NCBI GenBank assembly: GCA_963724945.1 | Contig: CAVRWL010000004.1 | Coordinates: 2,093-66,092 of the forward strand | Length of the DNA stretch: 64,000 bases | Direction: 5' to 3' | Origin: an uncultured Alphaproteobacteria bacterium | GTDB taxonomy: Bacteria > Pseudomonadota > Alphaproteobacteria > Rhizobiales > Hyphomicrobiaceae | Part shown: one piece after another, positions 11,208-59,340 of the stretch | Layout: every line of letters begins with the position of its first letter | Numbering within the stretch: position 1 is the first letter of the stretch | Position numbers and translations under genes: made by a program | The notes under the pieces: generated by a model | The model's input: the letters and a program-made list of their open reading frames with translations, nothing else | Database searches by the model: none | Told to the model about the DNA's origin: nothing

Positions 11208-11211
11208 GCGC

Positions 11212-43011: not shown

Positions 43012-43086
43012 TGGCTGGGGCGGGAGGACTCGAACCTCCGAATGGCGGAATCAAAATCCGCTGCCTTACCACTTGGCTACGCCCCA
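43012..43086 (-). tRNA. tRNA-Gln (anticodon TTG)
   Basis: Reverse complement TGGGGCGTAGCCAAGTGGTAAGGCAGCGGATTTTGATTCCGCCATTCGGAGGTTCGAGTCCTCCCGCCCCAGCCA, 75-nt cloverleaf with CCA. Confidence 0.97.
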
Positions 43087-43271: not shown

Positions 43272-45044
43272 CTAGCGCGAAGGCTCGAGAACTTTCAGTG
43301 CCTCCGCCAGATCGCGTACCGGTCGCGTCTTGATCTCTTGCAGGTGGAATCGGTCTTCGATCATCTTGATGATTGACGTCGTGTCGAAGTCCTCGTGGGC
43401 CACGCCGGATTTCGCGAAGGCGCTAGAGACGAGCAGGGTCGGTATGCGGGTGCCGGGGCCCCACGCATCGGCAGCCGCCTTGTCGGAGCCATGCCGACCA
43501 TGTGGTGGAGGCGGCACGTGATCCCACGCGCCGCCGAACTCGTCGTACGTGACCACGATCAACGTGTCCTTGCCATCCGGCCCATTCACGATAGCCTTGA
43601 TCAGATCGACGAGATGGCTGCTGCCTTCCAACTCGCTGGTGTAGCCGGGATGCTCGTTCTCCTCGCCGACCGGCTTAATGAAGCTGACCGGCTTGAGCCT
43701 GCCCTCGTGCGCGGCCTTGATGAACTCCGCCTCGTCGAGCAAGTGGGCGGCGCGGGCCGCTGCGTGTGGCTGGGTATCGGCTGCGAAATTCGCGAAGTAG
43801 TTGAACGGCTGGTGGTGATACTGGAAATTCTTGTCCGGACAATGCGGGAAGCCCAGGCCCTGCAGCGGCACGAGCGGACTGTTGGCATCGGCGGGATCGG
43901 CATGAGTGGCTCTGGTGTCGGCATTCGGGTCGCTGCAGGCGGGGCCGCTACCGTTGGTCCAGCCGGGTGCACCGACAATGCCATTGGCATTCGACCAGCC
44001 GCCCGAATACCAGGCCCAGTCCACGTGCTCGGCCGTAAGCCGGTCACCGATCGTGGGGTTGGTGAGCAAAGGCAGGCGCTTTGCAGCGGCAGTGCCGGGC
44101 TGATACGGCCAAGAGATCGGCTGGATCGTGTTGACGGCGTAGTCGCCACACACGATGCCCTGCGGGGTCGCGGGCCGCCCCGCGGGCGGATTGCACGCAG
44201 CCGTCAGCGACCTTGGCTTCGCCGCAGCCCCCAGCGGGCTCGCGTAGAGTGGCGTGCTCATCGGCATGCCGTTGGCGTCGACGACTGAGTGAAGATCATT
44301 GGCGCCGCCATCGTTGGCCGCACCGGCGAATACCGGCGCAGCGCCTGCGATCAGCCATTGATGGTTGAGAAAGGATCCGCCGAAGGCTCCCTGAAAGAAG
44401 TGATCGGCTATCACGTAGTTAGGGGCACCATGGCTGTTGAGATACTTGTAGATCGGCAGATTCGTCGTGTCGTAGTAGCCCATCGAGAGGCCGGCCGCGT
44501 CGCTGCCAGTCACGTATCGGTTCTGCTTGCCCCCGTTGATCTGGTACTGCTCGATGTAATAGCGATGCACGAGGTCCCTCGTGCAGCCGCCAGGCAGACC
44601 CGTACCCTTCGCTTTTCCGTTGCCGGTGCGCTCACCCGGCGCAGGGCAGGTCGCGTCGCGCGAGGAGATGTAGGCGTCGATCTTGAAGGGCTTGTTGTCG
44701 AACGCACTCTCAAAGGGAGTTGCACCTGTGTTGTCCGTGCAGGTGGTCGCTAGCGGTGGCGCGGACGTGAGATTCACATCGTCCTGCAGCAGGCAGGTGT
44801 ACGGCGTGGTCCCGTCCTGGCGGACCTGTGGCGAATGCGCGGCGGCCGTCTCGGCATTGGCGAAGCCGTCGACCGGCTCCCCATCTACCTTGCCCCACAG
44901 GCCGAAGAGATTATCGAAGCTGTGGTTCTCCTGGTAGATGACGACGATGTGCTTGAAGTCGTCCAGACCAGCAGCATCGGCGAATGATGACGGCACCGCC
45001 GCACCGATGATCGCCGCAAGTGCGCACACGCCTTGAAACCGCAT
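43272..45044 (-). CDS. secreted acid phosphatase / phosphoesterase family (AcpA/PLC-like)
   Basis: Signal peptide; KHIVVIYQENHSFDNLFG, FGGSFLNH, NEHPG, TYDEFGGAWDHV. Confidence 0.9.
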   Translation of the reverse strand: MRFQGVCALAAIIGAAVPSSFADAAGLDDFKHIVVIYQENHSFDNLFGLWGKVDGEPVDGFANAETAAAHSPQVRQDGTTPYTCLLQDDVNLTSAPPLATTCTDNTGATPFESAFDNKPFKIDAYISSRDATCPAPGERTGNGKAKGTGLPGGCTRDLVHRYYIEQYQINGGKQNRYVTGSDAAGLSMGYYDTTNLPIYKYLNSHGAPNYVIADHFFQGAFGGSFLNHQWLIAGAAPVFAGAANDGGANDLHSVVDANGMPMSTPLYASPLGAAAKPRSLTAACNPPAGRPATPQGIVCGDYAVNTIQPISWPYQPGTAAAKRLPLLTNPTIGDRLTAEHVDWAWYSGGWSNANGIVGAPGWTNGSGPACSDPNADTRATHADPADANSPLVPLQGLGFPHCPDKNFQYHHQPFNYFANFAADTQPHAAARAAHLLDEAEFIKAAHEGRLKPVSFIKPVGEENEHPGYTSELEGSSHLVDLIKAIVNGPDGKDTLIVVTYDEFGGAWDHVPPPPHGRHGSDKAAADAWGPGTRIPTLLVSSAFAKSGVAHEDFDTTSIIKMIEDRFHLQEIKTRPVRDLAEALKVLEPSR

Positions 45045-45123
45045 TCGAGCCTCCACATGACAAGTGCGTGCACGATTTAACGGCGCTGTGCGACGCTCTT
45101 ACGTCGTAGGATGCTCGCAGCGG

Positions 45124-45141
45124 TTGTAATTCGACTGTCAT
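45124..45141 (+). promoter_or_regulatory. Pho-box-like direct repeat
   Basis: TTGTAAT-tcga-CTGTCAT, 11-bp periodicity, about 80 bp from the phosphatase start. Confidence 0.5.
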
Positions 45142-45173
45142 CAGTCATCGGCACGACTTGATCGTAGCCGCCA

Positions 45174-45199
45174 CGCTATATCCGATTGCATACAACGAT
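45174..45199 (+). promoter_or_regulatory. ModE/Mo-box-like operator
   Basis: CGCTATAT-N8-ATACAACG(AT), close to the CGnTATAT-N8-ATATAnCG(AT) consensus. Confidence 0.6.
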
Positions 45200-45369
45200 G
45201 TCGGAGTTGCGACAATCGACGCCGCCGGCGGCGCGCGGAAACGGCTGTTTTCACGCCGCAAATGGCGTCCGTTCCGGGCCGTGGCCGTCCCGGCATGAGG
45301 ATTGCTAGAGCTATTGCCAGGTGCTCTTGATCAGGCGAATGCCCAACACACAAATTCCGGAGAATTGCT

Positions 45370-45981
45370 ATGCCACGGCAGCTTCTCGACCTCGATCCAA
45401 ACAAGCTGGCCGCCGTCCTCTACCGGTCCGAGGACGACGTCGACGCCCTGCTCTATGAGTTCGCAAATGATCGCATGCGCGCCGGTGAGCGCGTCGGCGG
45501 CGTCGTGCAGCAGAACCTCAAGGATGCCGGCGGGCGGCGCGTCGGTATGCAACTCATCGACTTGATGACCAGCGGGGAGATCCCTATGGGGCAGTCGCTC
45601 GGCAGCGGCGCGAGCGGCTGCTCGCTCGACCCTGCGGGTCTCGCCGAGGCGTCGCTCGCCGTGACCCGCGCCATCGAGAGCGAGGTTGCGCTGATCGTCG
45701 TCAATAAGTTCTCCAAGCAGGAGGCGGCGGGCCAGGGACTGCGCAATGAGCTTGCGGATGCGGTCATTGCCGGACTGCCGGTGCTCACGGCGGTGCCCGA
45801 GACTTGCTTGCAAGCCTGGACGGACTTCACCGGCGATCGCGGCACGACGCTCTTCTGCGCGCGCCGCGTGATCGACGCATGGTGGCAAGAGGTGTCGACG
45901 CGTGAGGCTCTTATGCGCAATAGCCAGCCGCCGCGGGCCAAGCTGAATGCGGATCGCTTGGCTTCGACTTGGCGAGCATGA
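45370..45981 (+). CDS. DUF2478 family protein
   Basis: GGVVQ, QSLGSGASGCSLDP.GL, IVVNKFSKQEAAGQGLR, GLPVLTAV. Confidence 0.8.
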   Translation: MPRQLLDLDPNKLAAVLYRSEDDVDALLYEFANDRMRAGERVGGVVQQNLKDAGGRRVGMQLIDLMTSGEIPMGQSLGSGASGCSLDPAGLAEASLAVTRAIESEVALIVVNKFSKQEAAGQGLRNELADAVIAGLPVLTAVPETCLQAWTDFTGDRGTTLFCARRVIDAWWQEVSTREALMRNSQPPRAKLNADRLASTWRA

Positions 45982-46060
45982 CGTCCGACGACTTGATCAC
46001 GGTGGGCGCGCTGTCCCTTGCCTTGAGGCCTGGCGGCTCAAAGACCGCATGGAGGCGGCC

Positions 46061-46985
46061 TTGAACGACAATATTCCGAAATTGCTGGTCGGGCGGCGTC
46101 GCTTGCCGCTCGCTGTGATCCTCGGCACCAACGAGATCGCGTCGGCCGTCGCCGTGCATCTGCGCAAAGTCGGCTTCGGGGTCGTGCTGTCGCACGATCC
46201 GATGCCCCCGGTCATGCGTCGCGGCATGGCGTTCCATGACGCCCTGTTCGGCGAAGACTCCGATGATCGAGGGGGTTGCCGGATATGGTGTCGACCGCGC
46301 GTTCGACGTGATCGCCGTGATCAACGCTTCTGACCGGATGCGGGTCGCGATCACGCGGCTCGGTCTCTGCGACCTCCTGGCGATCCGCAGCATCACCGTG
46401 CTGGTCGATGCCCGCATGCGGAAGCACATGGTGACACCAGACCTCAGCCACCTCGCCGGCATCACCGTAGGGCTCGGGCCCGGATTCGAGGTCGGCGGCA
46501 ACTGCGATGTCGCGGTCGAGACGCGTCCGGCGCGCATCGGCCAGGTGGTGCAACAGGGTGCAACAGACGAGGCAGACGGCAAACCGCCTTCGCTCGGCGG
46601 CGCGGGCCGTGAGCGCTTCGTCTACGCGCGCAGCTCCGGGCTATGGCGCACGGCGTTCGACATCGGAGCCCAGGTCCGCGCCGGTGCAGCTCTAGGCTAC
46701 CTTGCGGATCGCGCTGTGATGGCCCCTATAAACGGAACACTGCGCGGCATCGTGCGTGACGCGACCACGGTGCCATCTGGCGTCAAGCTGCTCGAGGTCG
46801 ACCCGCGCGGGCAAGCCTGCTGGATCGGCATCGACGAGCGCGGACGCCGGATTGCGCTTGCGGCGATGCGAGCAATTGCGGTGCAGGCAAACCGTTATGA
46901 GGGCCGCGAGGACTTGAAGCAATTGCACTGGAATAGCGCACACCTGAAGGAAAAGGTGGCACGCGTTGGCCGCGACCGGCTGTAG
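46061..46985 (+). CDS. YqeB-like molybdenum hydroxylase accessory protein (one extra base near 46256)
   Basis: VILGTNEIASAVAVHL, RRGMAFHDA, LVDARMRK, VGLGPGFEVG.NCDVAVET, GRERFVYA, GTLRGIVRD, KLLEVDPR; TTG start with GGAGG. Confidence 0.75.
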
Positions 46986-47271
46986 CAGCCTCGGCTTACG
47001 CGGATTTGTCGCATTGAGCCAGATGTGCTAGGCACTGCGGCGACCAGCGTTTCGCACTCCACCATACGGCGATAAACGAGCCCCCGGGTGTCCAGAAGCC
47101 GGGACTCGCAATTTTACGCGTATCGCATTATCTCCGATCAAACCCACTATGGTTGGAGCCTGCCGCGGGGGACTCGACGGTCCCCATCACGGGCGCTCCC
47201 AGCTTGGGCTCGGACCGCGGTCCCAGTGCCCAATGTGCTCTCTGCTTATCGACCTCGAAAGGAGGCCCCTT

Positions 47272-47517
47272 CTGATAGTTCTCGTTCGCGAAAACAACGT
47301 CGACCAAGCCCTCAGGGTCCTGAAGAAGAAGCTCCAGCGCGAAGGCGTTTTCCGAGAGATGAAGCGCCGGCGGTCCTATGAAAAGCCGTCCGAGAAAAGA
47401 GCCCGAGAGAAGGGTGAGGCCGTGCGTAGGGCAAGAAAGGCTGCGCGCAAGCTAGCCCAACGCGAAGGCTTGCTCCCAAAGCCGGCTGCCAAACGGCCTG
47501 TATTCGGCCGCCGGTAG
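47272..47517 (+). CDS. rpsU: 30S ribosomal protein S21, apparent CTG start
   Basis: [29 protein letters not shown]...YEKPSEKR; GGAGG 6 nt before CTG. Confidence 0.92.
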
Positions 47518-47565
47518 GCATCCGCCGGCTCAGCTTGCGGCGATTGTTTCGGCCGCGAAGCGAGG

Positions 47566-47826
47566 TCAGAAATCGGAGGCGATCAGGGCGTATGAGCCCT
47601 GGCGGCGCCCCGAGTAGACTTTGCGCGCAACCTTGATGATGCGCTCGCGGTTGTTATCGAAGCTCTGCAGCATCGCGTCTTGATTGTGTCTCGTCTCCGG
47701 AGCAATCCGAAACAGAGCTGCCTCCTCGACGAAGAACGATACCTCGAGCGCGCCGTCATAGCCCCAGAAGCGCACGCAATGGCGCGTAGCATCGTAGCTG
47801 CGGCTGACGTTCGGGAAATTCAGCAC
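47566..47826 (-). CDS. DUF1488-like small protein
   Basis: NFPNVSRSYDATRHCVRFWGYDG..EVSFFV pattern. Confidence 0.75.
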   Translation of the reverse strand: MLNFPNVSRSYDATRHCVRFWGYDGALEVSFFVEEAALFRIAPETRHNQDAMLQSFDNNRERIIKVARKVYSGRRQGSYALIASDF

Positions 47827-47860
47827 CGATTATGTCCTGTTCGATCGGTCGCCAAGCGAT

Positions 47861-48100
47861 CTACTTTCCTGTCGTCTTTGCGGTTGCCCGCGCGATGAGC
47901 TTGATGGCGCCTCGCGCTTGCCCCGACCGCTTTGCAATCTCCTGATCTTGAACCTCGATGATCGCCTGAGCGGGCGCATCGCCCTCAAGCCCCCCGAGGG
48001 CGGCGCTTGGGACCTTGCGGTTGGACGTGCGCGTGCCGTCCTCATAATGCACGTCGAATAGTATGAACTCGGCTTGGGCCTTCGGTTTTCTGCGCGCCAT
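47861..48100 (-). CDS. small conserved hypothetical protein
   Basis: FILFDVHYEDGTRTSNRKVP...AIIEVQD; co-oriented with its neighbours. Confidence 0.75.
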   Translation of the reverse strand: MARRKPKAQAEFILFDVHYEDGTRTSNRKVPSAALGGLEGDAPAQAIIEVQDQEIAKRSGQARGAIKLIARATAKTTGK

Positions 48101-48182
48101 TGTCCGTCTCTTGGGTGAAAGGTTTTCGAGCCTGCCGATAACAGATCGTCACGCGAGCTGAGCGGGAAGCTCCGCCGGGCGA

Positions 48183-48464
48183 TCAGTGGCCCTTTCCAGG
48201 CAGGTCCCTGCCCCTGATGCACACCGTGCCATCCTGCTCGATGAGCCCCTTGTCATACTTGTCGCTGGCGATCTGCTCGAACTGCATCCTGAACTCATTG
48301 AATTGCTCGATGTGCTCCTCGCCGTGCGCCGGCGGATCTATGTCCTCAAGAGCATGGAGAGACACGAGGACGCTGATCGTGCGACCGCCGTCACTCATGG
48401 CGAACAGCACGCCCTCATGGGCATTATCCAACGTGCCCGGTTGCGCAACCGGCGTGAGCGGCAT
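48183..48464 (-). CDS. second DUF1488-like small protein
   Basis: GVLFAMSDGGRTISVLVSLHALED...FEQIASDKY pattern. Confidence 0.7.
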   Translation of the reverse strand: MPLTPVAQPGTLDNAHEGVLFAMSDGGRTISVLVSLHALEDIDPPAHGEEHIEQFNEFRMQFEQIASDKYDKGLIEQDGTVCIRGRDLPGKGH

Positions 48465-48706
48465 GATCGAACCTGTTTTCATTTGGATGGCACAACCGGC
48501 AGTTGCCCGTGACGCATGCCGGTCTTCGCGACAATAGGCCGCCGGATTGCCGTCGCTTTTATCACGTTCCTGCATCCGGGCGGCGTTAATTCCTCGACAG
48601 CCCACAAAACGGAGCGCAAAGTGCCGCGATCATCGGTTTGTTCGGTCCAGGCACCGGTGGCTGAGAGACAGCGCTGCGCTCCCGCCTGCCAACAAGGAGG
48701 GAGTTC

Positions 48707-48982
48707 ATGTGTCCGTTTTTCGGGACCCCCGAGGGGTTGTCGCCTGAGGCGCTGGAGTTGCTCGACCGAACGTTTGCAGCAACGTGGAACGATCTGCAAA
48801 TGAGGAAGAGTTCCTCCACGTCGCCGGTGAACGAAGCAGAGACACAATTGGCAATCGCCAAGGCCATCATGGACCTGGCGGCCACAGGCGTGCGCGAGCC
48901 GGAGCGTCTGAAGCGTCACGCGCTTCATGCCGCCGAACGCGCAAGACCGCGCACGCGGACCATAATTCACTTGCCCGACTAG
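48707..48982 (+). CDS. small hypothetical protein
   Basis: RBS AAGGAGG; helical PEALELLDRTF...LAKAIMDLAATGVREPERLK-like pattern. Confidence 0.7.
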   Translation: MCPFFGTPEGLSPEALELLDRTFAATWNDLQMRKSSSTSPVNEAETQLAIAKAIMDLAATGVREPERLKRHALHAAERARPRTRTIIHLPD

Positions 48983-49143
48983 CCGCCGCGCATCGCCCGA
49001 GTGGCTGAGCATCCGCTGTAAGCTGGCAATCGAGTCGTGCTATTCCACGTGGCGTCTGAGCGTCCGTGCACGGTCAGCACCATCGCCATAAGGGCACGCT
49101 ACCCGAGGCTGCCGACAGAGGCCCGCTAACAGGGGGGAATTGA

Positions 49144-50196
49144 ATGCAACATCCCGGTTTCTTTGAAAGGGCGGGACCTTTTCCGCTGCGCCTCATTGCT
49201 GCGAAGCTGGGCGCGGAGCTCGAAGGGCTCCCCGAGGAGGAATTGGTCGATATCGAAGATATAAAACCTCTCGGTAACGCTGGTCCGCACGATCTCGCGT
49301 TCTTCGACAATCCAAAGTACCTGGAGCAGCTCACCAAGACCCGCGCGGGCGGTTGTCTCGTGGCGCCGGCATTTGCCGTGCGCGTACCGGCGAGCACCGC
49401 GGTGCTCAAAACGAAATCGCCCTACAATGCCTTCGCTCTGGCGCTGCGCCTATTCTACGTTGACGCCCTGCGCCCCGTTGGCGCCAAATGCGGGGACGAG
49501 CACGGCGGCGGACGCCTCGTTCATCCCAGCGCGCAGATCGACGAGGGTGTGATCATCGAGCCCGGCGCGGTCATCGGCAGGGAGGCGAAGATCGGCGGCG
49601 GCACTACGGTCGCTGCCGGTGCTGTTGTCGGCTACCGCGTGTCGCTTGGCCGCGATTGCTATGTCGGCCCGAGCGCGACCATCACCCACGCGATCGTCGG
49701 CGAGCGGGTCATCCTGCATGCGGGTGTGCGAATCGGGCAGGACGGCTTCGGGTTTGCGATGAGCGCCAATGGGCACCTGAAGGTGCCGCAGGTGGGCCGC
49801 GTCATCATCGGCAACGACGTCGAGATCGGAGCCAACTCGACCATCGATCGCGGCGCACTCAACGATACCGTCATCGGCGAAGGAACAAAGATCGATAACC
49901 TCGTTCAAATCGGCCACAACGCCGTCATCGGGCGCCACTGCGTCATCGTCGCGCAGACTGGAATTGCCGGCTCGGCGGAGCTTGGCGATTTCGTCGTCAT
50001 GGGAGGTCACTCCGGCGTCGTCGGCCACGTCAAGATCGGCGCCCGCGCGCAAATAGCGGGCATGGCGCACGTGAAGGAGGACGTCGTGGCCGGAGCTCGG
50101 ATGGGGGGGACGCCGGCAGTGCCTTTCAACGAATGGGCACGCGAGGTTGCAACCCTGAAGCGGCTCGCCGCACGCAATGGCAAGCGCAACGCCTGA
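49144..50196 (+). CDS. lpxD: UDP-3-O-(3-hydroxyacyl)glucosamine N-acyltransferase, stand-alone copy
   Basis: FFDNPKY, hexapeptide repeats, [42 protein letters not shown]. Confidence 0.95.
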
Positions 50197-50209
50197 TTCC
50201 GACGCAGCG

Positions 50210-50416
50210 CTAGAGCAGCCCGGTGAGCGGCGTGAGCTCGCTCTCCTTGGCAACCCGCTCAAACGTCTCCGCGGCGGACTTGATGCGGTAAAGCAGATCG
50301 CCGCCCTCGAAGGGCATCAGCTTCAGAACCTTGTACTCCCTGGAGGAAGCGGGCAGCCCCCAGCGACCGGGCGTGAAATCGACCGCCTGCCCGACTTTGA
50401 ATCTGTGCCGTGGCAT
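50210..50416 (-). CDS. small SH3-like hypothetical protein downstream of cspA
   Basis: HRFKVGQAV...YRIKS..E.FERVAKESEL; 17 nt after the cspA stop. Confidence 0.75.
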   Translation of the reverse strand: MPRHRFKVGQAVDFTPGRWGLPASSREYKVLKLMPFEGGDLLYRIKSAAETFERVAKESELTPLTGLL

Positions 50417-50433
50417 CCAGCAATTCCTCGCTG

Positions 50434-50646
50434 TTAGGCGAGCTCGATCTGACCGGCCTTCTTGCCGCGCCCCTTAGGGTCGTCCTCGAGCACGAAGCTG
50501 ATCTTGTCGCCCTCATTGAGCGTGGCGATGCCAGCAGCCTCGAGCGCGCTGGCGTGGACAAACACGTCTTTGCTGCCGTCGGCCGGGGCTACGAAGCCAA
50601 AACCCTTGGCGCCGTTATAAAACTTCAAAGTGCCGGTGATGCGCAT
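50434..50646 (-). CDS. cspA: cold-shock protein (CSD)
   Basis: KGFGFV (RNP1) and DVFVHAS (RNP2). Confidence 0.96.
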   Translation of the reverse strand: MRITGTLKFYNGAKGFGFVAPADGSKDVFVHASALEAAGIATLNEGDKISFVLEDDPKGRGKKAGQIELA

Positions 50647-50807
50647 AAATTCGAGCCTTCCCTTGCGCGAGCTAAGCTGGCCATGAAAAGGCCGCGCGCT
50701 CGGCCTGACAGCTCAGTCATGGGAAAGGCGAACGACCGCAGCGGGCCAGTAGGCGAAACCGCAAACACCGAGGGCGCGCTCCTGCTTGGGGCGCGCCGGC
50801 TCAGCGG

Positions 50808-50836
50808 TGTATGGGCCCCATACAGAGTGATAGCAA
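50808..50836 (-). promoter_or_regulatory. candidate cspA promoter, implying a ~155-nt 5' UTR
   Basis: Minus strand TTGCTA-N17-CATACA. Confidence 0.5.
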
Positions 50837-50870
50837 GCACTATCGGGCCGCTCTTTAGTTTACGACTGCT

Positions 50871-51122
50871 TTACGCCATGTCGCGCCGCTGCAGCGGATA
50901 AGCTTCGCTGTCATAGAGCTTGCGGATAGTGGCGGCATCAAATCGTTGGTCGTTCGCCTCGAGCACGGTGCCGAACAGAACCTCGGAGGGAAGCTCCTCG
51001 ATGGCGAAACGGATCGCCTCTGCGCCCGAATCGAATCGGCGGTAGGTCACCGGGCGCGGGCTAGAGCCTCGACTCCTGCAGGCGTAAATCTCGGCCGGAG
51101 CCGTATAGTCGAAATCATTCAT
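50871..51122 (-). CDS. small conserved hypothetical protein
   Basis: FDYTAPAEIY...YRRFDSGAEAIRFAIEEL...LYDSEAYPL. Confidence 0.75.
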   Translation of the reverse strand: MNDFDYTAPAEIYACRSRGSSPRPVTYRRFDSGAEAIRFAIEELPSEVLFGTVLEANDQRFDAATIRKLYDSEAYPLQRRDMA

Positions 51123-51456
51123 GATCAAAGATATGGGGTCTCGGGCTGCCGATTGCATCGGGCGGCGCTTCCCGAAGTTTCTTGCTATTTGCGCAGCACT
51201 ATGAAATAAGCCCGCATCGCTTGAGCGAAGCTTGAGCGAACATCGGCGCTCCAGCCGCGTGAAAAGGACTTGGGTTCGGGCCCTTTACGAATACCGTAGG
51301 CCCCTCGTTCGTCCTCCTGTTGAGCGCCTCTGACACTTCCTCACATGACAGCCCAGGCCACGCGGGGCGTCCCCCGGATCAGCCGCGTTCATTCGCGCTC
51401 GGTCGACGCTGATGTCGGCCAGTCTTGTCGCGCGGCCACATAAGAAAGACTATCAA

Positions 51457-52740
51457 TTGACCACCTTTTCCCAACTCGGGCTCAACGCAGCCCTTTTGAA
51501 ATCGCTCGAAGCCGAAGGCTACACGACGCCAACGCCGATCCAGGCGCAGGCCATTCCGCACGTGCTGGGCGGCAAGGACCTGCTCGGCATCGCCCAGACA
51601 GGCACCGGCAAGACGGCGGCGTTCGCGCTGCCGATCCTGCATCGGCTCGCCGCCGATCGCCGTCCGGCGCTGCGCCACGGCGCGCGCGCGCTCATACTGT
51701 CGCCGACACGCGAGCTCGCGACGCAGATCGCGCAGAGCTTCAAGACCTACGGGCGCCACGTGAACTTGACCGTCGCACTCATGTACGGCGGCGTCCCGCA
51801 CCGGCCGCAGGTTGCCGCGATGATCCGCGGCGTCGATATCCTCGTCGCCACGCCCGGCCGGCTGATCCAGCACATCGAGGAGCGCAGCGTCGTTCTGTCG
51901 GGAACCGAGATCCTCGTTCTCGACGAGGCTGACCAGATGCTCGACATGGGCTTCATCCGGCCGATCCGCCAGATCCTGTCCAAGCTTTCCGCCAAGCGCC
52001 AAAGCCTGTTCTTCTCCGCGACTATGCCCAAGGAGATCGGTGCGCTCGCCGCGGAAATGCTGCGTAACCCAGAGCGCGTCGCCGTGACGCCCGTCGCCAA
52101 GACGGCCGATCGCGTCAGGCAAAGCGTCATCCACGTCGAGCCGCAGAGAAAGCAATCGCTGCTCGTTGAGCTGTTCGCCGATCCGGCGATGCGGCGCACG
52201 CTCGTCTTCACGCGCACCAAGCGCGGCGCCGACAAGGTTGCGCGCCACCTGGAGGCGGCAGGCATCAAGGTCGCCGCAATCCACGGCAACAAGAGCCAGG
52301 TCGCACGCGAGGCCGCGCTGCGCGCGTTCCGTGCCGGCCACATTCGCGGGCTCATCGCCACCGACATCGCCGCTCGCGGCATCGACATCGACGAGGTGAC
52401 ACACGTCGTCAACTTCGACCTGCCGCACGTGCCTGAGAGCTACGTCCATCGCATCGGCCGCACGGCACGCGCCGGCGCGGAAGGCATCGCGATCTCGCTG
52501 TGCGGGCGCGAGGAGCGCCCGCTCCTGCGCGACATCGAGCGCCTGACGCGGCAGTCGATCGCGAGTATCGACCGCCACGAGAGCAGGGAGGGCGAGGAGC
52601 CCGAGAGCAACCGGCATGGGCTGGTCGAGCGGCGCAGCGGCCCTCCGGCGAAGTTCCGCCACGCCCACAACGGCAAGAGACAAGGTGTGAGCACCTCCAA
52701 GCAGCAGCGCCGCCATCGTGGCGCAGCAATTGCTCGTTAA
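51457..52740 (+). CDS. DEAD-box RNA helicase (RhlE-like)
   Basis: AQTGTGKT, PTRELA, DEAD, SAT, ARGID, HRIGRTAR; TTG start. Confidence 0.96.
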   Translation: MTTFSQLGLNAALLKSLEAEGYTTPTPIQAQAIPHVLGGKDLLGIAQTGTGKTAAFALPILHRLAADRRPALRHGARALILSPTRELATQIAQSFKTYGRHVNLTVALMYGGVPHRPQVAAMIRGVDILVATPGRLIQHIEERSVVLSGTEILVLDEADQMLDMGFIRPIRQILSKLSAKRQSLFFSATMPKEIGALAAEMLRNPERVAVTPVAKTADRVRQSVIHVEPQRKQSLLVELFADPAMRRTLVFTRTKRGADKVARHLEAAGIKVAAIHGNKSQVAREAALRAFRAGHIRGLIATDIAARGIDIDEVTHVVNFDLPHVPESYVHRIGRTARAGAEGIAISLCGREERPLLRDIERLTRQSIASIDRHESREGEEPESNRHGLVERRSGPPAKFRHAHNGKRQGVSTSKQQRRHRGAAIAR

Positions 52741-53836
52741 AGAGGAGGGTTCCCGGGACACGCGGCCGGCACAGCCGGCCGCCATCGCACAAGGATCCAT
52801 CGTGCAACAGGCTGAAACCGCCAATTCCAATGTCACCGCCCGCGATTGGGCCTCGCTGCTGAGCCGCTATCGCGAGCCGAGCCCGCGACGCAGCGCGTTC
52901 GAGCTGGCAATCACCGCCGTAGCGTTCGTCCTGACGTGGGTCCTGATGTGGATCACCCTCGGGTTCGGCTATTGGCTCACGCTGCTGATCGCGGTTCCGG
53001 CCGCCGGCTTCCTCGTGCGGCTTTTCATGATCCAGCACGACTGCGGCCACGGAACACTCTTCCGCAACCGGGCCACCAACGACTGGATCGGGCGCGTGCT
53101 CGGCACGTTCACGCTGACGCCTTATGACTGCTGGCGGCGCAGCCACAACATCCACCACGCCAGCTCGGGCAATCTGCAAGAGCGCGGAATTGGCGACATC
53201 GAAACCTTGACGGTGCGCGAATATCTGGCGTTGCCGAGATGGCGGAGGTTTCGCTACCGGCTCTACCGGCATCCGCTCGTCATGTTCGGGCTCGGGCCGG
53301 CCTATCTGTTCATCCTGCAGCATCGCTTGCCCGTCGGACTGATGCGCAAGGGCTGGCGGCCGTGGGTCAGCACCATGGCGACGAATGCGGCGATCGCGGT
53401 CGTCGCCGGCGCCATGATTTGGCTGATCGGATTGGGCCCATTCCTGCTGGTGCACCTGCCGATCACGCTGCTCGCCGCATCGATCGGCGTGTGGCTGTTC
53501 TACGTGCAGCATCAGTTCGAGGAGACCACGTGGGCAGACGCCTCTTCGTGGAACCCGCACGATGCGGCGCTGCACGGCAGCTCGCATTACGCCTTGCCGG
53601 GCGTGCTGCGCTGGTTCACGGCCAACATCGGCATCCACCACGTGCACCATCTGTGCAGCCGCATTCCGTTCTATCGTCTCTCGCAGGTGCTGCGCGACCA
53701 TCCGGAGCTTGCGACGATCGGGCGTATCACGCTCATCGACAGCTTGCGCTGCGTGCGCTTCGCGCTTTGGGACGAGACGCGCCGGCGCTTGATCTCGTTT
53801 GGCGAGCTCCGCCGCCGGCTCTCGTGCCCTGCATGA
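52718..53836 (+). CDS. membrane fatty acid desaturase (Des/DesA-like)
   Basis: Three His boxes HDCGH, HNIHH, HHVHH; overlaps the helicase stop. Confidence 0.93.
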   Translation: MAQQLLVKEEGSRDTRPAQPAAIAQGSIVQQAETANSNVTARDWASLLSRYREPSPRRSAFELAITAVAFVLTWVLMWITLGFGYWLTLLIAVPAAGFLVRLFMIQHDCGHGTLFRNRATNDWIGRVLGTFTLTPYDCWRRSHNIHHASSGNLQERGIGDIETLTVREYLALPRWRRFRYRLYRHPLVMFGLGPAYLFILQHRLPVGLMRKGWRPWVSTMATNAAIAVVAGAMIWLIGLGPFLLVHLPITLLAASIGVWLFYVQHQFEETTWADASSWNPHDAALHGSSHYALPGVLRWFTANIGIHHVHHLCSRIPFYRLSQVLRDHPELATIGRITLIDSLRCVRFALWDETRRRLISFGELRRRLSCPA

Positions 53837-53914
53837 CAGCCGCGCTGCGCACATTTATTGCCCAGTTGAGATCCTGACCCCGGAGAGCCCGCAGTGACTT
53901 AAACAAGATCTGTC

Positions 53915-54133
53915 GTGCTCATGCTGGTGCTTGGTGCGCTCGGCGCCGTCATGGCGGTCGCCTTCCTGCTCATGGCCGATGGCGGCGCCCCGCATGGCTA
54001 CGGCGCGTTGATCGCCAATGAGCTCCCCGTCCTCATCGTTGCCGCGGGGATGGGATTTGGCGTGGGAATGCTGATCGCGCTTCTGTGGTCGGTCTTGCAG
54101 CGGCTCTTGGCTGTGAACGCCCCGCCGGCTTAG
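53915..54133 (+). CDS. small two-TM membrane protein
   Basis: 72-aa hydrophobic ORF; start uncertain. Confidence 0.5.
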   Translation: MLMLVLGALGAVMAVAFLLMADGGAPHGYGALIANELPVLIVAAGMGFGVGMLIALLWSVLQRLLAVNAPPA

Positions 54134-54156
54134 CGCGCTGCTCTTTGCGCCGAAGC

Positions 54157-55413
54157 TCAAACGGGCAGCACTAGCGGCTTCCCGCTGGGAAACTGAGCGA
54201 CCGTCATCGGATCGATGTGGAGGGTCTGGGCCACCATCGCGCGCGGGGTATGGCTCAACCAGTCGGACAGCGATACGTCGGCGACGTACGGGGCTCTGAA
54301 CACCTCGAGGTAGACGAGATCGGTCGAGCCGGTGTTGCGCAGATAATGCCCAAACGCTCTTTTGATGTAGCCGATATCGCCCGGATTGAAGTTCTGCGTC
54401 ACGGCGTTGGGCCCGGTATTGAACACGGTCGCCTCGCCCTGGCCGGCGATGACGTAGAGCCACTCGTCGGCGTTCGGGTGCCAGTGCATTTCGCGCATGC
54501 CGCCGGGGTGGATCGTCACGAGCGCCGCCGCGATGGTTTTCGCGATCTCGAAGTTCGTGCTGTCGGCGATGCGTACCTCGCCGCCGCGCGTTTTGCGAAT
54601 GGGCGCGACCTCGTTGAGCTGAAACGCCGAGCGCAGCTTGGGCAGCCCTGCATCGCCCGCCGCCTGTTGCTGCGCGGCCTCGATCGGCCCCGGCATTTCG
54701 CCCTGGAAGATGTAGAGATCGTGCAGCGGGATCTTGCTGAAGGTCTCGGCGGGAACGCCGAAGTTCATCGCCAGCACGTCGGGCTGCGTATGCGCCATCC
54801 AATCGGTGAGCAGTAGCGTGTTGAACTCGGACGCCTTGCCCTCATCGAAGCAAAGGATGAACTCGCAGCCGTCCTCGCCGATGCCTTGCAGGGAGTGCGG
54901 TAGCCCGGCGGGGAAGTACCAGAGCCCGCCCTGGTGCACGTCCTCGACGTTGGCGCGGCCCTGCTGGTCGATGGTGGTGATGCGGCACGAGCCGGCCGTC
55001 ACGTAGGCCCATTCCGCGAAGAGATGCCAGTGCAGCTCGCGGATGCCGCCGCGCGTCAAGCGCATATTGACGCCGGCGATCTCGGAGGCGATCTGGAAGT
55101 CGTATTGCGTGACCTGGCGCGCCCAGCCGCCGTCCTGGATGCGGCGCGGCGCATTGTTGAAGGACGCCCAGAACATCGGCAGCTCGCCCACATCGGTCGC
55201 CGGTGGCGAGAGGGCGCCGGGAAACTGACGGGAGAGAGCCGGGTTGTTCGGGCCCAGCACCGAAGTGCTCGACGGGTTGGTGCGCGTGTTGATCGCGCCT
55301 TGCGGCGGCTCGTCCGGATTGCCGTAGGAGGCCGCGCGTGCGGCGGTAGCAGCCGTGACAAGGCCGCCCGCGGCGGCGGCTGCGAGGACGTGGCGGCGTG
55401 ACAGCGGCTGCAT
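54157..55413 (-). CDS. oxdC: bicupin oxalate decarboxylase with Tat signal
   Basis: SRRHVL twin-arginine leader; RELHWH..AEW and REMHWHPNADEW Mn sites; lid Glu in SEFNT. Confidence 0.88.
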   Translation of the reverse strand: MQPLSRRHVLAAAAAGGLVTAATAARAASYGNPDEPPQGAINTRTNPSSTSVLGPNNPALSRQFPGALSPPATDVGELPMFWASFNNAPRRIQDGGWARQVTQYDFQIASEIAGVNMRLTRGGIRELHWHLFAEWAYVTAGSCRITTIDQQGRANVEDVHQGGLWYFPAGLPHSLQGIGEDGCEFILCFDEGKASEFNTLLLTDWMAHTQPDVLAMNFGVPAETFSKIPLHDLYIFQGEMPGPIEAAQQQAAGDAGLPKLRSAFQLNEVAPIRKTRGGEVRIADSTNFEIAKTIAAALVTIHPGGMREMHWHPNADEWLYVIAGQGEATVFNTGPNAVTQNFNPGDIGYIKRAFGHYLRNTGSTDLVYLEVFRAPYVADVSLSDWLSHTPRAMVAQTLHIDPMTVAQFPSGKPLVLPV

Positions 55414-55581
55414 CTTTTTGTTCCTTCCGGCCTCCTCAGAGCACCCGAATTGAGCACGCTTTGATTGAGAAGGTGCTGACGCACGTCGTGGCGTCTTAAG
55501 GTTGCGTTGCGCGCGCGCTGGCAAATCGACAAAAATCCGGCGCGCGCGGGCTTGTTAACGATCAGCGCGGCTGTCGGCCCG

Positions 55582-55607
55582 GGAACGACGGCGGCCAGTT
55601 GCGTGTT
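55582..55607 (+). promoter_or_regulatory. possible EcfG promoter
   Basis: GGAAC-N17-TGTT upstream of the Fet4-like gene. Confidence 0.45.
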
Positions 55608-55642
55608 GTCTGTCGCCATTCTGCGCCTTCCGGTGTGCTCCA

Positions 55643-56062
55643 ATGCTGATCGGCAAGAAAAAAGCTTCCTGGTTTTCCCTCTTCGCGCGCCGGGCCGCTA
55701 CCGTCGCCGGCCGTCCGGTCGCATTTGCGGCGGCGCTCGGCGCCCTCTTCGCGTGGGGTCTGAGCGGCCCCTTCTTCGGCTTCAGCGACACCTGGCAGCT
55801 CATCATCAACACCGGCACGACGATCGTGACGTTCCTGATGGTGTTCGTCATTCAGAACTCGCAGAACCGCGACTCGGAGGCGATCCAGGTGAAGCTCGAC
55901 GAGCTCATCCGTGCCATCGAGGGCGCGCAGAACAAGCTGCTCGATCTAGAGGAGCTGGGGCAAGAGGAGATCTCGGGCATCCGCAAGGAGTACAGTCGGC
56001 TCGCCGCCGATGCCCGCAACGGCAGCGGCCACGACAGCGATTGCCCGCCCGCTCCCGCGTAA
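55643..56062 (+). CDS. low-affinity iron permease (Fet4-like) family protein
   Basis: FSDTWQLIINTGTTIVTFLMVFVIQNSQNRD...KLDELI. Confidence 0.9.
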   Translation: MLIGKKKASWFSLFARRAATVAGRPVAFAAALGALFAWGLSGPFFGFSDTWQLIINTGTTIVTFLMVFVIQNSQNRDSEAIQVKLDELIRAIEGAQNKLLDLEELGQEEISGIRKEYSRLAADARNGSGHDSDCPPAPA

Positions 56063-56069
56063 TGGACGG

Positions 56070-57914
56070 CTATGTCGGTGCGCGGGCGGCGCTCGCCGGC
56101 GCGCTGCGCCAGCGCACGATGAAGTCGGCAGGGATGGCGATCGACCAGCGCACACCCTCCTGGGGAAACTCATATGCGACGGTCGCGTTGAGGGCCTGCG
56201 CGGCGACCCGCTCGATGACGATATGGCCGAAGCCCTTGACCGCCGGCGGCGCCACGGCGGGGCCGGCCCGCTCCCGCCAATTGAGGCTCAAGCGCGGCTT
56301 GCCATCGCCGTTGGATGCAACCGACCACATCACGCGCACCCGCCCTTCGCTCGTGGACAATGCGCCGTACTTCGCCGCGTTGGTGGCGAGCTCGTGCAGC
56401 GCCAGTCCGAGGTTCTGCGCCGCGGTCGCGTTGACGAAGACGCTCGGCCCCTCGCATTCGAGCGCTTCGGATTCGCTGCCGATGAAGGGTTGCAGCACCG
56501 CGCGGATGAGCTCTTCGAGGGAGGCGCCCGCCCAATCCTCCGCGACAAGCAGGTCATGGGAGGCCGAAAGGCCCTGCAGGCGCTGGATCAGCTCCGATTG
56601 CAGCACGGCGACGTCGCTGCTCGCGCGCGCGGTCTGGCGCACCATCGCCATGATGACGGCGAGCAGGTTCTTGGTGCGGTGCGATAACTCGCGCATGACG
56701 ACGCGCAGGTGCTTGTCGACCCGCGTTCGCTCGGAAATGTCGCGCAGCACGGCAGAGAAGCCGATGATGCGTCCATCGGGACGGCGCATCGGCGCCGCAT
56801 TGATCGCGACATCGATCAACGTTCCGTCCTTGCGCCGCCGCACCGCGTCGCGCAGCACGTGCTCGCCGTGGCGCAAGTGCTGATACTTCTCCTCGAATTC
56901 CTGGCCGGCGCCCTCCGTGAACAGGATCCGCTCCGACGTGCCGATGATCTCATCGGCCGTGTACCCGAACATCTGCTCCGCACCGGGATTCCACGACAGC
57001 ACCGTGCCGTCCTCCGCGAGGGAGATGATGGCGTCGGGCGACATTCCGACGATCGTCGCCAGCTGGGCGTTGCGCTCGGCCTCCTCAAGATGCTCGGTGA
57101 TGTCCGTGTTGGTCCCGAACCAGCGCACGACCTTGCCGCTCTCGTCGCGGATCGGCATGGCTCTCGACAGAAACCAGCGATAGGTGCCGTCGCGTCCGCG
57201 CAGCGGGAAGGTGTCCTCCCACACCTCGCCCGTCTTAAAGTGACGGGAAATCTTCTCGACGACGCGATTGACGTGATCGGGATGATGCACCTTTTGCCAG
57301 CCCCATCCCTTCATCTCCTCGAGGCTCGTGCCCGTGTAGTCGAACCAGCGCTTGTTGTACCAGAAGATGGATCCCGTCTCGTCGGCCATCCAGGCGAACT
57401 GCGCGATGTTGTCGGCGAGCGTGCGAAAGCGCGACTCGCTTTCCCGTTGCGCGCGCGCAGCGTACACCCACGGCGTCGTCTCCACGACGATGGCGAGCAC
57501 GCCCGCGGGCGCGCCCGTCTCGTCGCGCACCGGGCTGTAGTCGAGGTTCATCCATGCATCCTCGGGCGCGCCACGGCGATTGAGGAGGAAGTGCTTGTCC
57601 TTGAACGACAGCATCTCTCCGGCAAGCCCGACTTGCATCACCTGTCGGTTGAAGTCAGCAACCTCGGGCCATCCCTGCAGAACCGGCGAGCCGAGGATCT
57701 GCGGATGGCGGCTTCCGGCAAAGCCCGCATAGGCATCGTTGTAGATCATGATGCCGTCCTTCCCCCACAGCAGCACCATCGGCAGGGGCGAAGCCGTGAC
57801 GATGTCGACGGCAGTCCGCAAGCTCTGCGGCCAAGTCTCGATCGCGCCGAGACTGGTCGCCGACCAATCGAACGCTTGGATGTGCGATTTCATTTCGCTG
57901 GCAGGGGGTGACAT
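56070..57914 (-). CDS. cytoplasmic multi-PAS HWE histidine kinase
   Basis: FDWSATSLG PAS-like N-terminus, PAC motifs, RELSHRTKN, HELATNAAKYG, WRE. Confidence 0.93.
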   Translation of the reverse strand: MSPPASEMKSHIQAFDWSATSLGAIETWPQSLRTAVDIVTASPLPMVLLWGKDGIMIYNDAYAGFAGSRHPQILGSPVLQGWPEVADFNRQVMQVGLAGEMLSFKDKHFLLNRRGAPEDAWMNLDYSPVRDETGAPAGVLAIVVETTPWVYAARAQRESESRFRTLADNIAQFAWMADETGSIFWYNKRWFDYTGTSLEEMKGWGWQKVHHPDHVNRVVEKISRHFKTGEVWEDTFPLRGRDGTYRWFLSRAMPIRDESGKVVRWFGTNTDITEHLEEAERNAQLATIVGMSPDAIISLAEDGTVLSWNPGAEQMFGYTADEIIGTSERILFTEGAGQEFEEKYQHLRHGEHVLRDAVRRRKDGTLIDVAINAAPMRRPDGRIIGFSAVLRDISERTRVDKHLRVVMRELSHRTKNLLAVIMAMVRQTARASSDVAVLQSELIQRLQGLSASHDLLVAEDWAGASLEELIRAVLQPFIGSESEALECEGPSVFVNATAAQNLGLALHELATNAAKYGALSTSEGRVRVMWSVASNGDGKPRLSLNWRERAGPAVAPPAVKGFGHIVIERVAAQALNATVAYEFPQEGVRWSIAIPADFIVRWRSAPASAARAPT

Positions 57915-58028
57915 GGCCGGCTCGGAAGCGCTTTGCGACAGTCTACGTGAGGAGCACGTGGCACGGTATGTCATTTGACATATCTGCGTTATGAGGTCAT
58001 TGCGGACGCCCGGCGCGCTCGACGCACT

Positions 58029-58054
58029 GGAACCGAACCGCGCGCGCCGGAGTT
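58029..58054 (+). promoter_or_regulatory. EcfG promoter of the DUF1328 gene
   Basis: GGAAC-N17-AGTT. Confidence 0.65.
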
Positions 58055-58097
58055 GGGGAAGACGAGCGAATGCCAATCCCCTCAGCGCGAGGCAGCC

Positions 58098-58274
58098 ATG
58101 GGCAACCTTCTCTCCTGGGCCGTCGTCTTTCTCATCATCGCTCTCATCGCCGCCTTCCTGGGCTTCGGCGGCGTCGCCGGCGTGGCGACCAATGGGGCGC
58201 GAATGCTGTTCTGGGTCGCCATCATCCTCGTGGTTCTCTCTTTCATCGGCGGCATGTTGCGACGTGGCTCTTGA
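58098..58274 (+). CDS. DUF1328 small membrane protein
   Basis: [22 protein letters not shown]. Confidence 0.9.
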
Positions 58275-58392
58275 AGGCGCGGCCGAAGGCATCGAGGAAG
58301 CTTAGCCTCCGCAGCAAGGCCGAAAAAACGACGTATTTTCCATGAGATAGGCGGGAACCAGCTGTCGGGGGGTGGCAAATCTCTGCTATGGT

Positions 58393-58418
58393 GGAACTTT
58401 CCCCGTTGCCCATGCGTT
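58393..58418 (+). promoter_or_regulatory. EcfG promoter of phyR
   Basis: GGAAC-N17-CGTT. Confidence 0.85.
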
Positions 58419-58456
58419 AGCGCGCATCGCGGCCCACCGTGAGAGAAGGGGAGACC

Positions 58457-59272
58457 ATGTCGATCTCAGAGGTTATCGCACCGCAGCTGCCGTACTTAAG
58501 GCGGTTCGCGCGCGTGTTGTCGGGCAGCCAGGCAAGCGGCGACGCCTACGTCGTCGCGATGCTCGAAGCGCTCGCGGCCGAGCCCGACCTATTTCCCACC
58601 GATCTCAATCCGCGGGTCGCAACATATCAGACCTTTCTCAAGGTCTGGAACACGGTGCGCCTCAACCAGAAGGCCGCCGAGACCGCGGTCTCCGAGCGGC
58701 TCGCGGCGGCCGACCGCAAGCTCGAAGCCATAACGCCGAGAGCGCGCCAAGCGTTTCTGCTGATTGCGGTCGAGGAGTTCACGACCGAGGAAGCCGAACA
58801 GACTCTCGAGACCGACGAGATGGGCATCAAATCGCTCGTCGACCAGGCTGCTTCGGAGATCGCCGAGCAAGTGGCGACGAACGTTCTCATCATCGAGGAC
58901 GAGCCGATGATCGCCATCGACCTTGCCGATCTCGTCACCGGCCTCGGCCATGACGTCTGCGAGACGGCACGCACCCACAAGGAAGCCGTGGCGGCCTTCG
59001 GCCGGCACAAGCCGGGCTTGGTTCTCGCCGACATCCAACTTGCCGACGGCAGCTCCGGCTTGGATGCGGTCAATGAGATTCTGGGATCGTTCGATGTGCC
59101 GGTGATCTTCATCACGGCTTATCCCGAGCGGCTGTTGACCGGCAGCCGTCCGGAGCCGACGTTCCTTGTCAACAAGCCGTTCCGGACAGAGACCGTGCAG
59201 GCCGTCATCAGCCAGGCGCTGTTTTTCGACTACAGAGCGCGCCGCCCGAATGCCCGGGTCGCCTCGGCCTGA
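58457..59272 (+). CDS. phyR: anti-anti-sigma response regulator PhyR
   Basis: Sigma-like N-terminus LPYLRRFAR.LSGSQASGDAYV; receiver IIEDE, ADIQLADG, FITAYPERLLTG. Confidence 0.96.
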   Translation: MSISEVIAPQLPYLRRFARVLSGSQASGDAYVVAMLEALAAEPDLFPTDLNPRVATYQTFLKVWNTVRLNQKAAETAVSERLAAADRKLEAITPRARQAFLLIAVEEFTTEEAEQTLETDEMGIKSLVDQAASEIAEQVATNVLIIEDEPMIAIDLADLVTGLGHDVCETARTHKEAVAAFGRHKPGLVLADIQLADGSSGLDAVNEILGSFDVPVIFITAYPERLLTGSRPEPTFLVNKPFRTETVQAVISQALFFDYRARRPNARVASA

Positions 59273-59340
59273 AGTCGCACGCAGATTGTCAGGAGGAGCC
59301 GACGCGGGTGCGGAGCGAGGCGCGCTGCTGCACGTCCTTC

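Follow-up and report, generated by a model that had tools for sequence, protein, structure and literature searches.

A second lpxD gene linked to cold-shock-type genes in Hyphomicrobiaceae

Why does a gene for the lipid A enzyme UDP-3-O-acylglucosamine N-acyltransferase, lpxD, stand by itself among genes of the cold-shock type? This question is raised by positions 47272–53836 of a stretch of 64,000 nucleotides (the window; contig CAVRWL010000004.1, assembly GCA_963724945.1, positions 2,093 to 66,092, forward strand) from an uncultured alphaproteobacterium of the family Hyphomicrobiaceae. A preliminary description of this DNA had proposed a coordinated cold-adaptation island made of rpsU, cspA, a DEAD-box helicase overlapping a fatty-acid desaturase, a stand-alone lpxD, and 6 tiny unknown genes. 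Using the open reading frame (ORF) listing and profile searches, we found all 11 named genes in the region at the coordinates given; the gene set, the oddity of lpxD, and a conserved core of the cluster stood, and its island-wide scope was not conserved. The reading that we favor, with a confidence falling just short of even, is a lineage-specific neighborhood of separately transcribed cold-shock-type genes, neither a single operon nor an acquired island, with a stable core formed by cspA-sm68, the small gene sm95, and the stand-alone lpxD, termed lpxD2 below.

Two LpxD clades in Hyphomicrobiaceae

Species-representative genomes were scanned for lpxD, yielding 80 loci that were sorted by tblastn with the window proteins, and the LpxD proteins were compared across 82 Hyphomicrobiaceae loci, 66 of them canonical and 16 stand-alone (15 loci and the window, together clade B). 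In a neighbor-joining tree, the 16 stand-alone proteins formed one clade and the 66 canonical proteins the other. The 2 clades are approximately 60–65% identical to each other, which points to duplication within Hyphomicrobiaceae. The lpxD-fabZ-lpxA(-lpxB) context is typical of the LpxD family without being defining for the enzyme, and canonical lpxD was followed by fabZ, lpxA, and usually lpxB; searches with Escherichia coli queries recovered FabZ in 64 and LpxB in 51 of the 66 canonical loci, against 0 of 16 stand-alone loci for either protein. Neither the window lpxD nor any other of the 16 clade-B genes adjoins FabZ, LpxA, or LpxB, and the gene deserves the term stand-alone that it had been given. 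One copy of each type was present in 2 metagenome-assembled genomes (MAGs), Hyphomicrobium sp. 12-62-95 (loci L021 and L063) and MFD09779.bin.1.317 (loci L013 and L072, on contigs of 478 kb and 1.18 Mb), and for this reason the stand-alone gene is, by sequence comparison, a second copy (lpxD2); it originated within Hyphomicrobiaceae or earlier and has been kept since.

The window lpxD2 (49144–50196, + strand; 350 aa) passed the curated models TIGR01853 (346.9 bits, cutoff 242.5) and NF002060 (397 bits, cutoff 207), and its product carries the uridine-binding domain PF04613 at residues 36–103 and 4 hexapeptide stretches. His258 aligns with the catalytic H239 of E. coli and was invariant in 6 of 6 aligned sequences, and the product is a predicted N-acyltransferase acting on UDP-3-O-acyl-GlcN. 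The closest named relative was the LpxD of Hyphomicrobium sp. 1Nfss2.1 (77%), the best matches overall coming from MAGs of uncultured Alphaproteobacteria and Hyphomicrobiaceae. In the loop aligned to the E. coli ruler (G287–M292), the stand-alone clade reads IAGMAHVK and the canonical clade IAG[GAST]SH[PAV]K, with differences between the clades opposite E. coli M288, G289, and V291.

Among the loci collected, 3 were labelled Leptospira interrogans (L022, JBNOAI010000008.1), Bacteroidota (L023, JBLNBZ010000147.1), and Devosia equisanguinis (L071, CAMDPA010000009.1) and carried a Hyphomicrobiaceae-type lpxD-fabZ-lpxA arrangement with an LpxD 64–65% identical to that of the window. These are probably contaminant or mis-binned contigs.

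Linkage of lpxD2 with cspA, sm95, and sm68

In the window, lpxD2 is followed on the opposite strand by sm68 (50210–50416, −; 68 aa), a cspA-family gene (50434–50646, −; 70 aa), and sm95 (50871–51122, −; 83 aa). The same partners recurred at other stand-alone loci, with cspA near lpxD in 10 of 16 (Fisher p = 3.7e-9), sm95 in 9 (p = 3.9e-8), and sm68 in 7 (p = 3e-6), against 0 of 66 canonical loci for each gene; these p-values overstate independence, as the loci are phylogenetically related. The association of lpxD2, cspA, sm95, and sm68 was not found in 1.17 Mb of DNA around the 66 canonical lpxD genes. At least 6 distinct gene orders and orientations were identified, namely sm91>lpxD> <sm68<cspA<sm95, sm95>lpxD>cspA>, <sm95<sm68 cspA>lpxD>, cspA>cspA>lpxD>, sm95>lpxD> <sm68 cspA>, and helicase>sm68>lpxD> (arrowheads give the direction of transcription), indicating that proximity has been maintained through rearrangement, and the linkage survived at LpxD identities down to 63%. 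The inclusion of lpxD had been singled out as the unusual part of the cluster, and its separate clade, tied to cspA, sm95, and sm68 through several rearrangements, agrees with that judgment. Conservation of the clustering was otherwise partial: the linkage of lpxD2 with cspA, sm95, and sm68 recurred across the family, whereas rpsU, the helicase, and the desaturase were linked to it in close relatives only, with rpsU near stand-alone lpxD in just 3 of the 16 clade-B loci.

A genomic island in the sense of acquired DNA, which the word island in the preliminary description could imply, is not indicated. The GC content was 0.61–0.67 inside the cluster and 0.63–0.68 in the flanks, no integrase or transposase was present among the neighbors of the cluster, and the closest tRNA gene (43012–43086) lies 4 kb away.

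Leader RNAs and small genes of the cluster

Long conserved leaders were identified on 3 units, those of the helicase, cspA, and sm91-lpxD, and cspA, sm91, and the helicase combine such leaders with sigma-70-like promoters. The helicase gene (51412–52740, +; 442 aa; PF00270, E = 4.6e-50; PF00271, E = 2.7e-31) encodes the motifs AQTGTGKT, DEAD, SAT, and HRIGRTARAG, as read from the translation. Its best NCBIfam models were RhlE2 (488 bits, cutoff 925) and RhlE (449 bits, cutoff 743), both below their equivalog cutoffs, and we therefore call it RhlE-like. The 210 nt before its ATG were conserved in 13 close loci and folded into a multi-stem structure (51208–51420, +), and a covariance model built from these 13 loci found 40 instances among 84 sources, each of them directly upstream of an orthologue of the helicase. 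In the alignment, 92.4% of cells were paired compared with approximately 42% in slid controls, no shuffle reached the observed values, and compensatory changes occurred in 37 of 50 pairs, figures to be read with the alignment having been fitted to the covariance model. The start codon (ATG at 51412) lies within the last hairpin, and a promoter-like CTTGCT-N18-GATAAG is present at approximately 51181–51214. A search of positions 44000–57000 against Rfam 15 gave no match at E ≤ 1 for the leaders of the helicase, cspA, or sm91. Sequence and covariation give good support to the helicase leader as a candidate for a new family of cis-regulatory RNAs. An alternative-pairing switch between GCCGCGTG, CACGCGGGGC, and GCCGCGT was considered and found unsupported, as the variants lengthen a local hairpin and the segments show no other variation; a pseudoknot was likewise unsupported by the same variants.

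The membrane fatty-acid desaturase (52718–53836, +; PF00487, E = 1.8e-34) follows the helicase on the same strand, and the 2 adjacent genes are probably co-transcribed, an adjacency seen only in the close relatives L003 and L084–L086. Its translation contains the His boxes HDCGH, HNIHH, and HHVHH, and the closest NCBIfam model was Delta5 DesA at 355 bits, below the cutoff of 500. The 23-nt overlap with the helicase that had been reported depends on a GTG at 52718 that lacks a Shine-Dalgarno sequence, whereas the GTG at 52802, the likely start, is preceded by AAGGA, and 59 nt separate the helicase stop from the first in-frame start in L003. The overlap is probably an artefact of longest-ORF calling.

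The cspA product is a single cold-shock domain (PF00313, E = 1.2e-18) with RNP1 KGFGFV and RNP2 VFVHA read from its translation. Its leader (50647–50837, −) was kept over approximately 150–190 nt in L003, L085, L088, L091, and L124 (nhmmer E = 1e-21 to 3e-34), with a promoter-like CTTGCT element at 50837–50832 (−). Cold-inducible members of the CspA family typically have a long 5′ untranslated region. A second, different leader of approximately 170 nt is common to 10 lpxD2-linked cspA copies in other genomes, 2 each in L001 and L011 and the others in L012, L013, L015, L017 (at about 11090–11266), L021, and L028. Its consensus reads ATCGACTTTGGCCGGAC...GGCC...CGTTCAGA.CCC.TCCAAA..ATCGA, with a CTTG-N17-CTATAT-like promoter ahead. 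Neither cspA leader matched Rfam, in positions 44000–57000 of the window at E ≤ 1 or in L001, L011, L012, and L017 at the gathering score.

The gene sm68 begins 17 nt after the cspA stop and is probably co-transcribed with cspA. We found 176 homologues of its product, none of them named. An AlphaFold2 model (pLDDT 85) has 5 strands, and Foldseek matched it to chromo-barrel, Tudor, and KOW domains and to Bacillus subtilis YorP at TM 0.6–0.72 with E values of only 0.1–0.2; the model thus suggests an SH3-like, Tudor-like, or KOW-like beta-barrel by resemblance, not membership. Barrels of the SH3-like fold often serve the binding of nucleic acids, RNA polymerase, or ribosomes. For sm95, approximately 200 unnamed homologues were recovered, and as these are mostly 83 aa long, the true start is probably at 51122, not at 51158, to which the ORF extends. 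No Pfam domain was found in sm95, and its AlphaFold2 model, an alpha/beta protein at pLDDT 84, had no match in a fold search of the PDB (best E = 0.43). In L001, an ORF of 81 aa of the GcrA family (PF07750) lies between sm95 and sm68 and beside lpxD2 at 11362–11607 (−), in that genome only.

The third leader belongs to sm91 (48707–48982, +; 91 aa), which lies just 5′ of lpxD2 on the same strand behind a strong Shine-Dalgarno sequence; no terminator was predicted in the gap of 161 nt between the 2 genes. Relatives of sm91 occupy the equivalent position in L003 (79%), L085 (58%), and L091 (63%). The leader and promoter region at 48581–48706 (+) is conserved across the window and these 3 loci, the 125 nt upstream of sm91 being more conserved than its coding sequence. 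A core motif CAGGCG...CTGAGAGA...GCGCTCCCGCCTG at 48647–48691 (+) recurred in L003 (9527–9571), L085 (1825–1868), L091 (1028–1072), and L015 (12010–11969, −), and L001 has 4 copies within 21 kb (1374–1416; 9651–9692; 2957–2917, −; and 12040–12001, −), 1 of them 330 nt before its lpxD2. In the vicinity of cspA and lpxD2, several small ORFs, also in L015, have a motif of this type 15–25 nt ahead of their Shine-Dalgarno sequence and start codon. Lack of conservation at the −12 GC spoke against a sigma-54 reading of the motif, which was rejected.

Comparison with known cold-response systems

Temperature-switched LpxD enzymes have been described in Francisella, where LpxD1 and LpxD2 add C18 versus C16 chains (PMC3545938, PMC10248169), and a paper from 2023 counts only 2 bacteria, both of them pathogens, in which duplicate LpxD enzymes have been examined for their function (PMC10248169). 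Francisella and the 2 related MAGs with both copies are alike in that one LpxD paralog is encoded in the canonical lipid A cluster and the other elsewhere. The extra Francisella LpxD is tied to low temperature and alters the length of the N-acyl chain and hence the fluidity of the outer membrane, a role that for the window lineage is ours by proposal. The 2 Francisella proteins are 34% identical and are thought to be of distinct origin, compared with approximately 60–65% identity between the Hyphomicrobiaceae clades, and their temperature regulation and chain selectivity have been measured, whereas those of the Hyphomicrobiaceae pair are proposed. Physical linkage of a second lpxD to cspA does not feature in these descriptions of Francisella (PMC3545938; PMC10248169). 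Leptospira has 2 annotated lpxD genes per genome, LpxD1 being needed for thermal acclimatisation (Eshghi et al. 2015, as cited in the accessible part of PMC10248169); it differs in belonging to another phylum, and the same part of that source reports no csp linkage and describes the conditions governing the 2 copies as unclear. Our literature searches turned up no report of free-living Alphaproteobacteria with a conserved clade of LpxD paralogs physically linked to cspA.

The preliminary description had pointed to cold-induced relatives of these gene families, and the literature bears this out for each family, in Alphaproteobacteria or elsewhere (PMC8552747, PMC5472812, PMC3545938). In Sinorhizobium meliloti, cspA and rpsU form a cold-shock operon (O'Connell and Thomashow 2000, as cited in PMC3557214), and the window resembles this other member of the Hyphomicrobiales, so far as that source describes it, in having a cspA homologue and an S21 gene close together. 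Unlike there, cspA and rpsU are on opposite strands and separated by 2.9 kb and 5 genes, with sm68 following cspA, and the window therefore has no cspA-rpsU operon. In Caulobacter, cspA, cspB, and the desaturase CCNA_03535 are cold-induced (PMC8552747), and full expression of rhlE needs a 5′ untranslated region of 186 nt, cold induction being mainly post-transcriptional with apparent autoregulation (PMC5472812). The window helicase resembles Caulobacter rhlE in being RhlE-like, alphaproteobacterial, and preceded by a leader of approximately 200 nt with several stem-loops, the 2 leaders having been compared by description. It is unlike Caulobacter RhlE in falling below the NCBIfam RhlE cutoffs, and leader structure, covariation, and spread over 40 orthologous loci are shown for the window helicase type. 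The desaturase shares with Bacillus Des (Delta5 DesA) and CCNA_03535 the membrane type with 3 His boxes, of a family known as cold-induced; its score against the Delta5 DesA model does not allow regiospecificity to be assigned. Unlike Bacillus Des, it has no adjacent sensor of the DesK/DesR type and seems to ride on the helicase transcript.

Starting from the observed gene identities, paralogy, conserved linkage, and structured leaders, we propose a mechanism by homology with these systems, which is also how the cluster was assigned to cold. After a drop in temperature, the mRNAs of cspA, the helicase, and sm91-lpxD2 would be stabilized or better translated through their long structured leaders, for which Caulobacter cspA and rhlE are the precedent. 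CspA and the RhlE-like helicase would keep RNA unfolded while S21 supports initiation, and the co-transcribed desaturase would put double bonds into phospholipids. LpxD2 would compete with LpxD1 for UDP-3-O-acyl-GlcN and attach a different, probably shorter, N-linked hydroxyacyl chain, so that both envelope leaflets may stay fluid, as in Francisella. Cold induction, co-regulation, and a difference in acyl chain are what we infer here; the recurrent linkage of lpxD2 to cold-shock-type genes is suggestive, though no proof, of an outer membrane remodelled according to temperature. A bolder version, which we consider possible and rather doubtful, is an undescribed cold-acclimation core of Hyphomicrobiaceae, in which a cspA-sm68 operon and sm95 would act together with an LpxD paralog that retunes the N-acyl chains of lipid A in the cold, the helicase would sense temperature or its own activity through its leader RNA, and sm68 and sm95 would be new cold-shock factors working with CspA on RNA or ribosomes.

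If true, temperature-driven remodelling of lipid A would extend to free-living bacteria, the common soil and wetland Hyphomicrobiaceae, which would be the third lineage overall with such an LpxD system and the first among free-living Alphaproteobacteria, and the helicase leader could explain the post-transcriptional cold induction of RhlE-type helicases. The genes lpxD2, cspA, sm68, and sm95 offer a concrete set to test, and carriers such as Hyphomicrobium sp. 1Nfss2.1 (locus L001, GCA_965243865.1) can be cultivated.

Alternative readings of the neighborhood

Several observations weigh against a cold-response neighborhood. By strand and spacing, the cluster comprises at least 6 transcription units on both strands (rpsU; DUF1488b-sm79-DUF1488a; sm91-lpxD; sm95; cspA-sm68; and helicase-desaturase), and no motif shared among the upstream regions of cspA, lpxD, the helicase, and rpsU was found by blastn-short, nhmmer, or the helicase-leader covariance model, so that the coordinated module that had been suggested was not supported by any common upstream sequence or RNA motif. 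No conserved element was visible directly upstream of lpxD2 across the clade. The rpsU-to-desaturase arrangement was confined to close relatives with LpxD at least 79% identical (L003, L085, and L091, with partial versions in L084, L086, L088, and L124), and 70 more distant helicase orthologues lacked these neighbors. None of cspA, sm95, and sm68 was nearby at 5 of the 16 clade-B loci (L004, L014, L029, L030, and L040), whose neighbor ORF lists are noisy in GC-rich DNA and uninformative. The chain-length determinant described for E. coli LpxD, M290 (Bartling and Raetz 2009, as cited in PMC13595139), corresponds to His in both clades, and only 2 columns across the whole of LpxD discriminate strictly between them; for both reasons a difference in acyl-chain length between LpxD2 and LpxD1 is speculative, a lead and not evidence. 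The canonical lpxD of the window organism itself would be expected, from its relatives, in an lpxD-fabZ-lpxA-lpxB cluster elsewhere. Alphaproteobacterial Csp paralogs can be stationary-phase and not cold genes (PMC8552747), and the datasets containing the window sequence were DNA metagenomes of soil, marsh, wetland, and cave only, with no RNA run among them.

The first alternative takes the synteny as an accident of descent in one genus-level lineage, with lpxD2 a redundant duplicate and csp genes merely numerous. The narrow range of the full arrangement, the lack of a shared cis-element, units that are convergent or divergent and not one operon, and the 5 clade-B loci without partners all fit this account, which we nevertheless regard as unlikely: the grouping of lpxD2 with cspA, sm95, and sm68 outlasted at least 6 rearrangements and considerable divergence of LpxD while being absent around the 66 canonical genes, and the family as a whole has kept the paralog clade intact.

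According to a second alternative, the neighborhood responds to general stress or stationary phase, through PhyR-NepR-EcfG or starvation, and the envelope changes for dormancy or desiccation. The window has more EcfG-type sites (GGAAC-N15-18-CGTT) than expected, 10 versus 1.5, with 5 of them in 58393–63852; a site at 60774–60750 (−) lies just 5′ of a CsbD-family gene (60510–60710, −), with a divergent site at 60835–60859 (+), and within the cluster a GGAAC-N18-CGTT lies at 48814–48788 (−), upstream of the second DUF1488 gene. A GlsB/YeaQ-like stress gene stands beside lpxD2 in L004, and cspD of Caulobacter is starvation-induced (PMC8552747). The cluster site was not conserved in any relative, however, and L003, the closest relative, lacks that DUF1488 gene; another EcfG-type site, inside lpxD, falls in conserved coding sequence. 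An EcfG promoter for the cluster was rejected on these grounds, a single site that is not conserved, and the RpoH-type promoter pattern had no matches. The sigma-70-like promoters and long leaders of cspA, sm91, and the helicase correspond instead to the architecture of cold-shock messages (PMC5472812), which leaves a general-stress role improbable in our view.

Very unlikely, finally, is a role of LpxD2 unrelated to temperature, whether in producing a variant lipid A at some developmental stage of these budding, prosthecate organisms or in acylating another amino sugar, with neighbors that are coincidental or share only growth-rate control: the fragment of a GcrA-family cell-cycle regulator beside lpxD2 in L001 and the unclear conditions governing Leptospira LpxD (PMC10248169) could be cited for it, but the GcrA-like gene occurs in one genome only, and a different substrate is not indicated, because LpxD2 is LpxD-like over its full length and keeps the N-terminal UDP-binding domain and the catalytic His. 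Each of the 3 alternatives is less consistent with the data than a cold-response neighborhood, given the repeated re-association of lpxD2 with cspA and the cold-shock-like architecture of the leaders.

Other genes of the region and its flanks

The 6 tiny genes that had been listed as unknown are 2 DUF1488 genes, sm79, sm91, sm68, and sm95, and all 6 are real genes, as each has protein-level relatives elsewhere. No second copy of any cluster gene was present within the window, which covers, for these 64 kb, the check for further rpsU, cspA, and lpxD copies that had been called for. The region begins with rpsU (47272–47517, +; ribosomal protein S21, 81 aa; PF01165, E = 1.6e-19; TIGR00030, 70.7 bits, cutoff 29), whose Met1 position is CTG and not ATG, 6 nt after the strong Shine-Dalgarno sequence AAAGGAGG. 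CTG is kept at this position in the window (47272–47274), L003 (8390), and L001 (4382), and could be a non-canonical start codon that matters for regulation.

Between rpsU and sm91, 3 small genes lie on the reverse strand. The first encodes a DUF1488-family protein (47566–47826, −; 86 aa; PF07369, E = 9e-17) that is 92% identical to the copy in L003, and the third (48183–48464, −) encodes the second DUF1488 protein, 93 aa from its ATG (PF07369, E = 3.7e-7), with an ORF extendable to a GTG at 48605. Between them, sm79 (47861–48100, −; 79 aa) resembles sm91 in having no family match in Pfam or NCBIfam; its relatives lie beside cspA in L001 (73%) and beside sm68 and the helicase in L127 (49%).

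At 43272–45056 (−), 2.2 kb upstream of the cluster, an ORF of 594 aa encodes a secreted protein of the phosphoesterase/phospholipase C family (PF04185), a possible membrane-lipid remodelling enzyme that is not linked to the cluster in relatives. Downstream, none of the neighbors at 54157–58292 recurs with the cluster in relatives; they comprise an oxalate-decarboxylase-like bicupin (PF00190 twice), a low-affinity iron permease (PF04120), and an ORF of 740 aa that, judged by eye from its sequence, is a putative histidine kinase of the PAS type.

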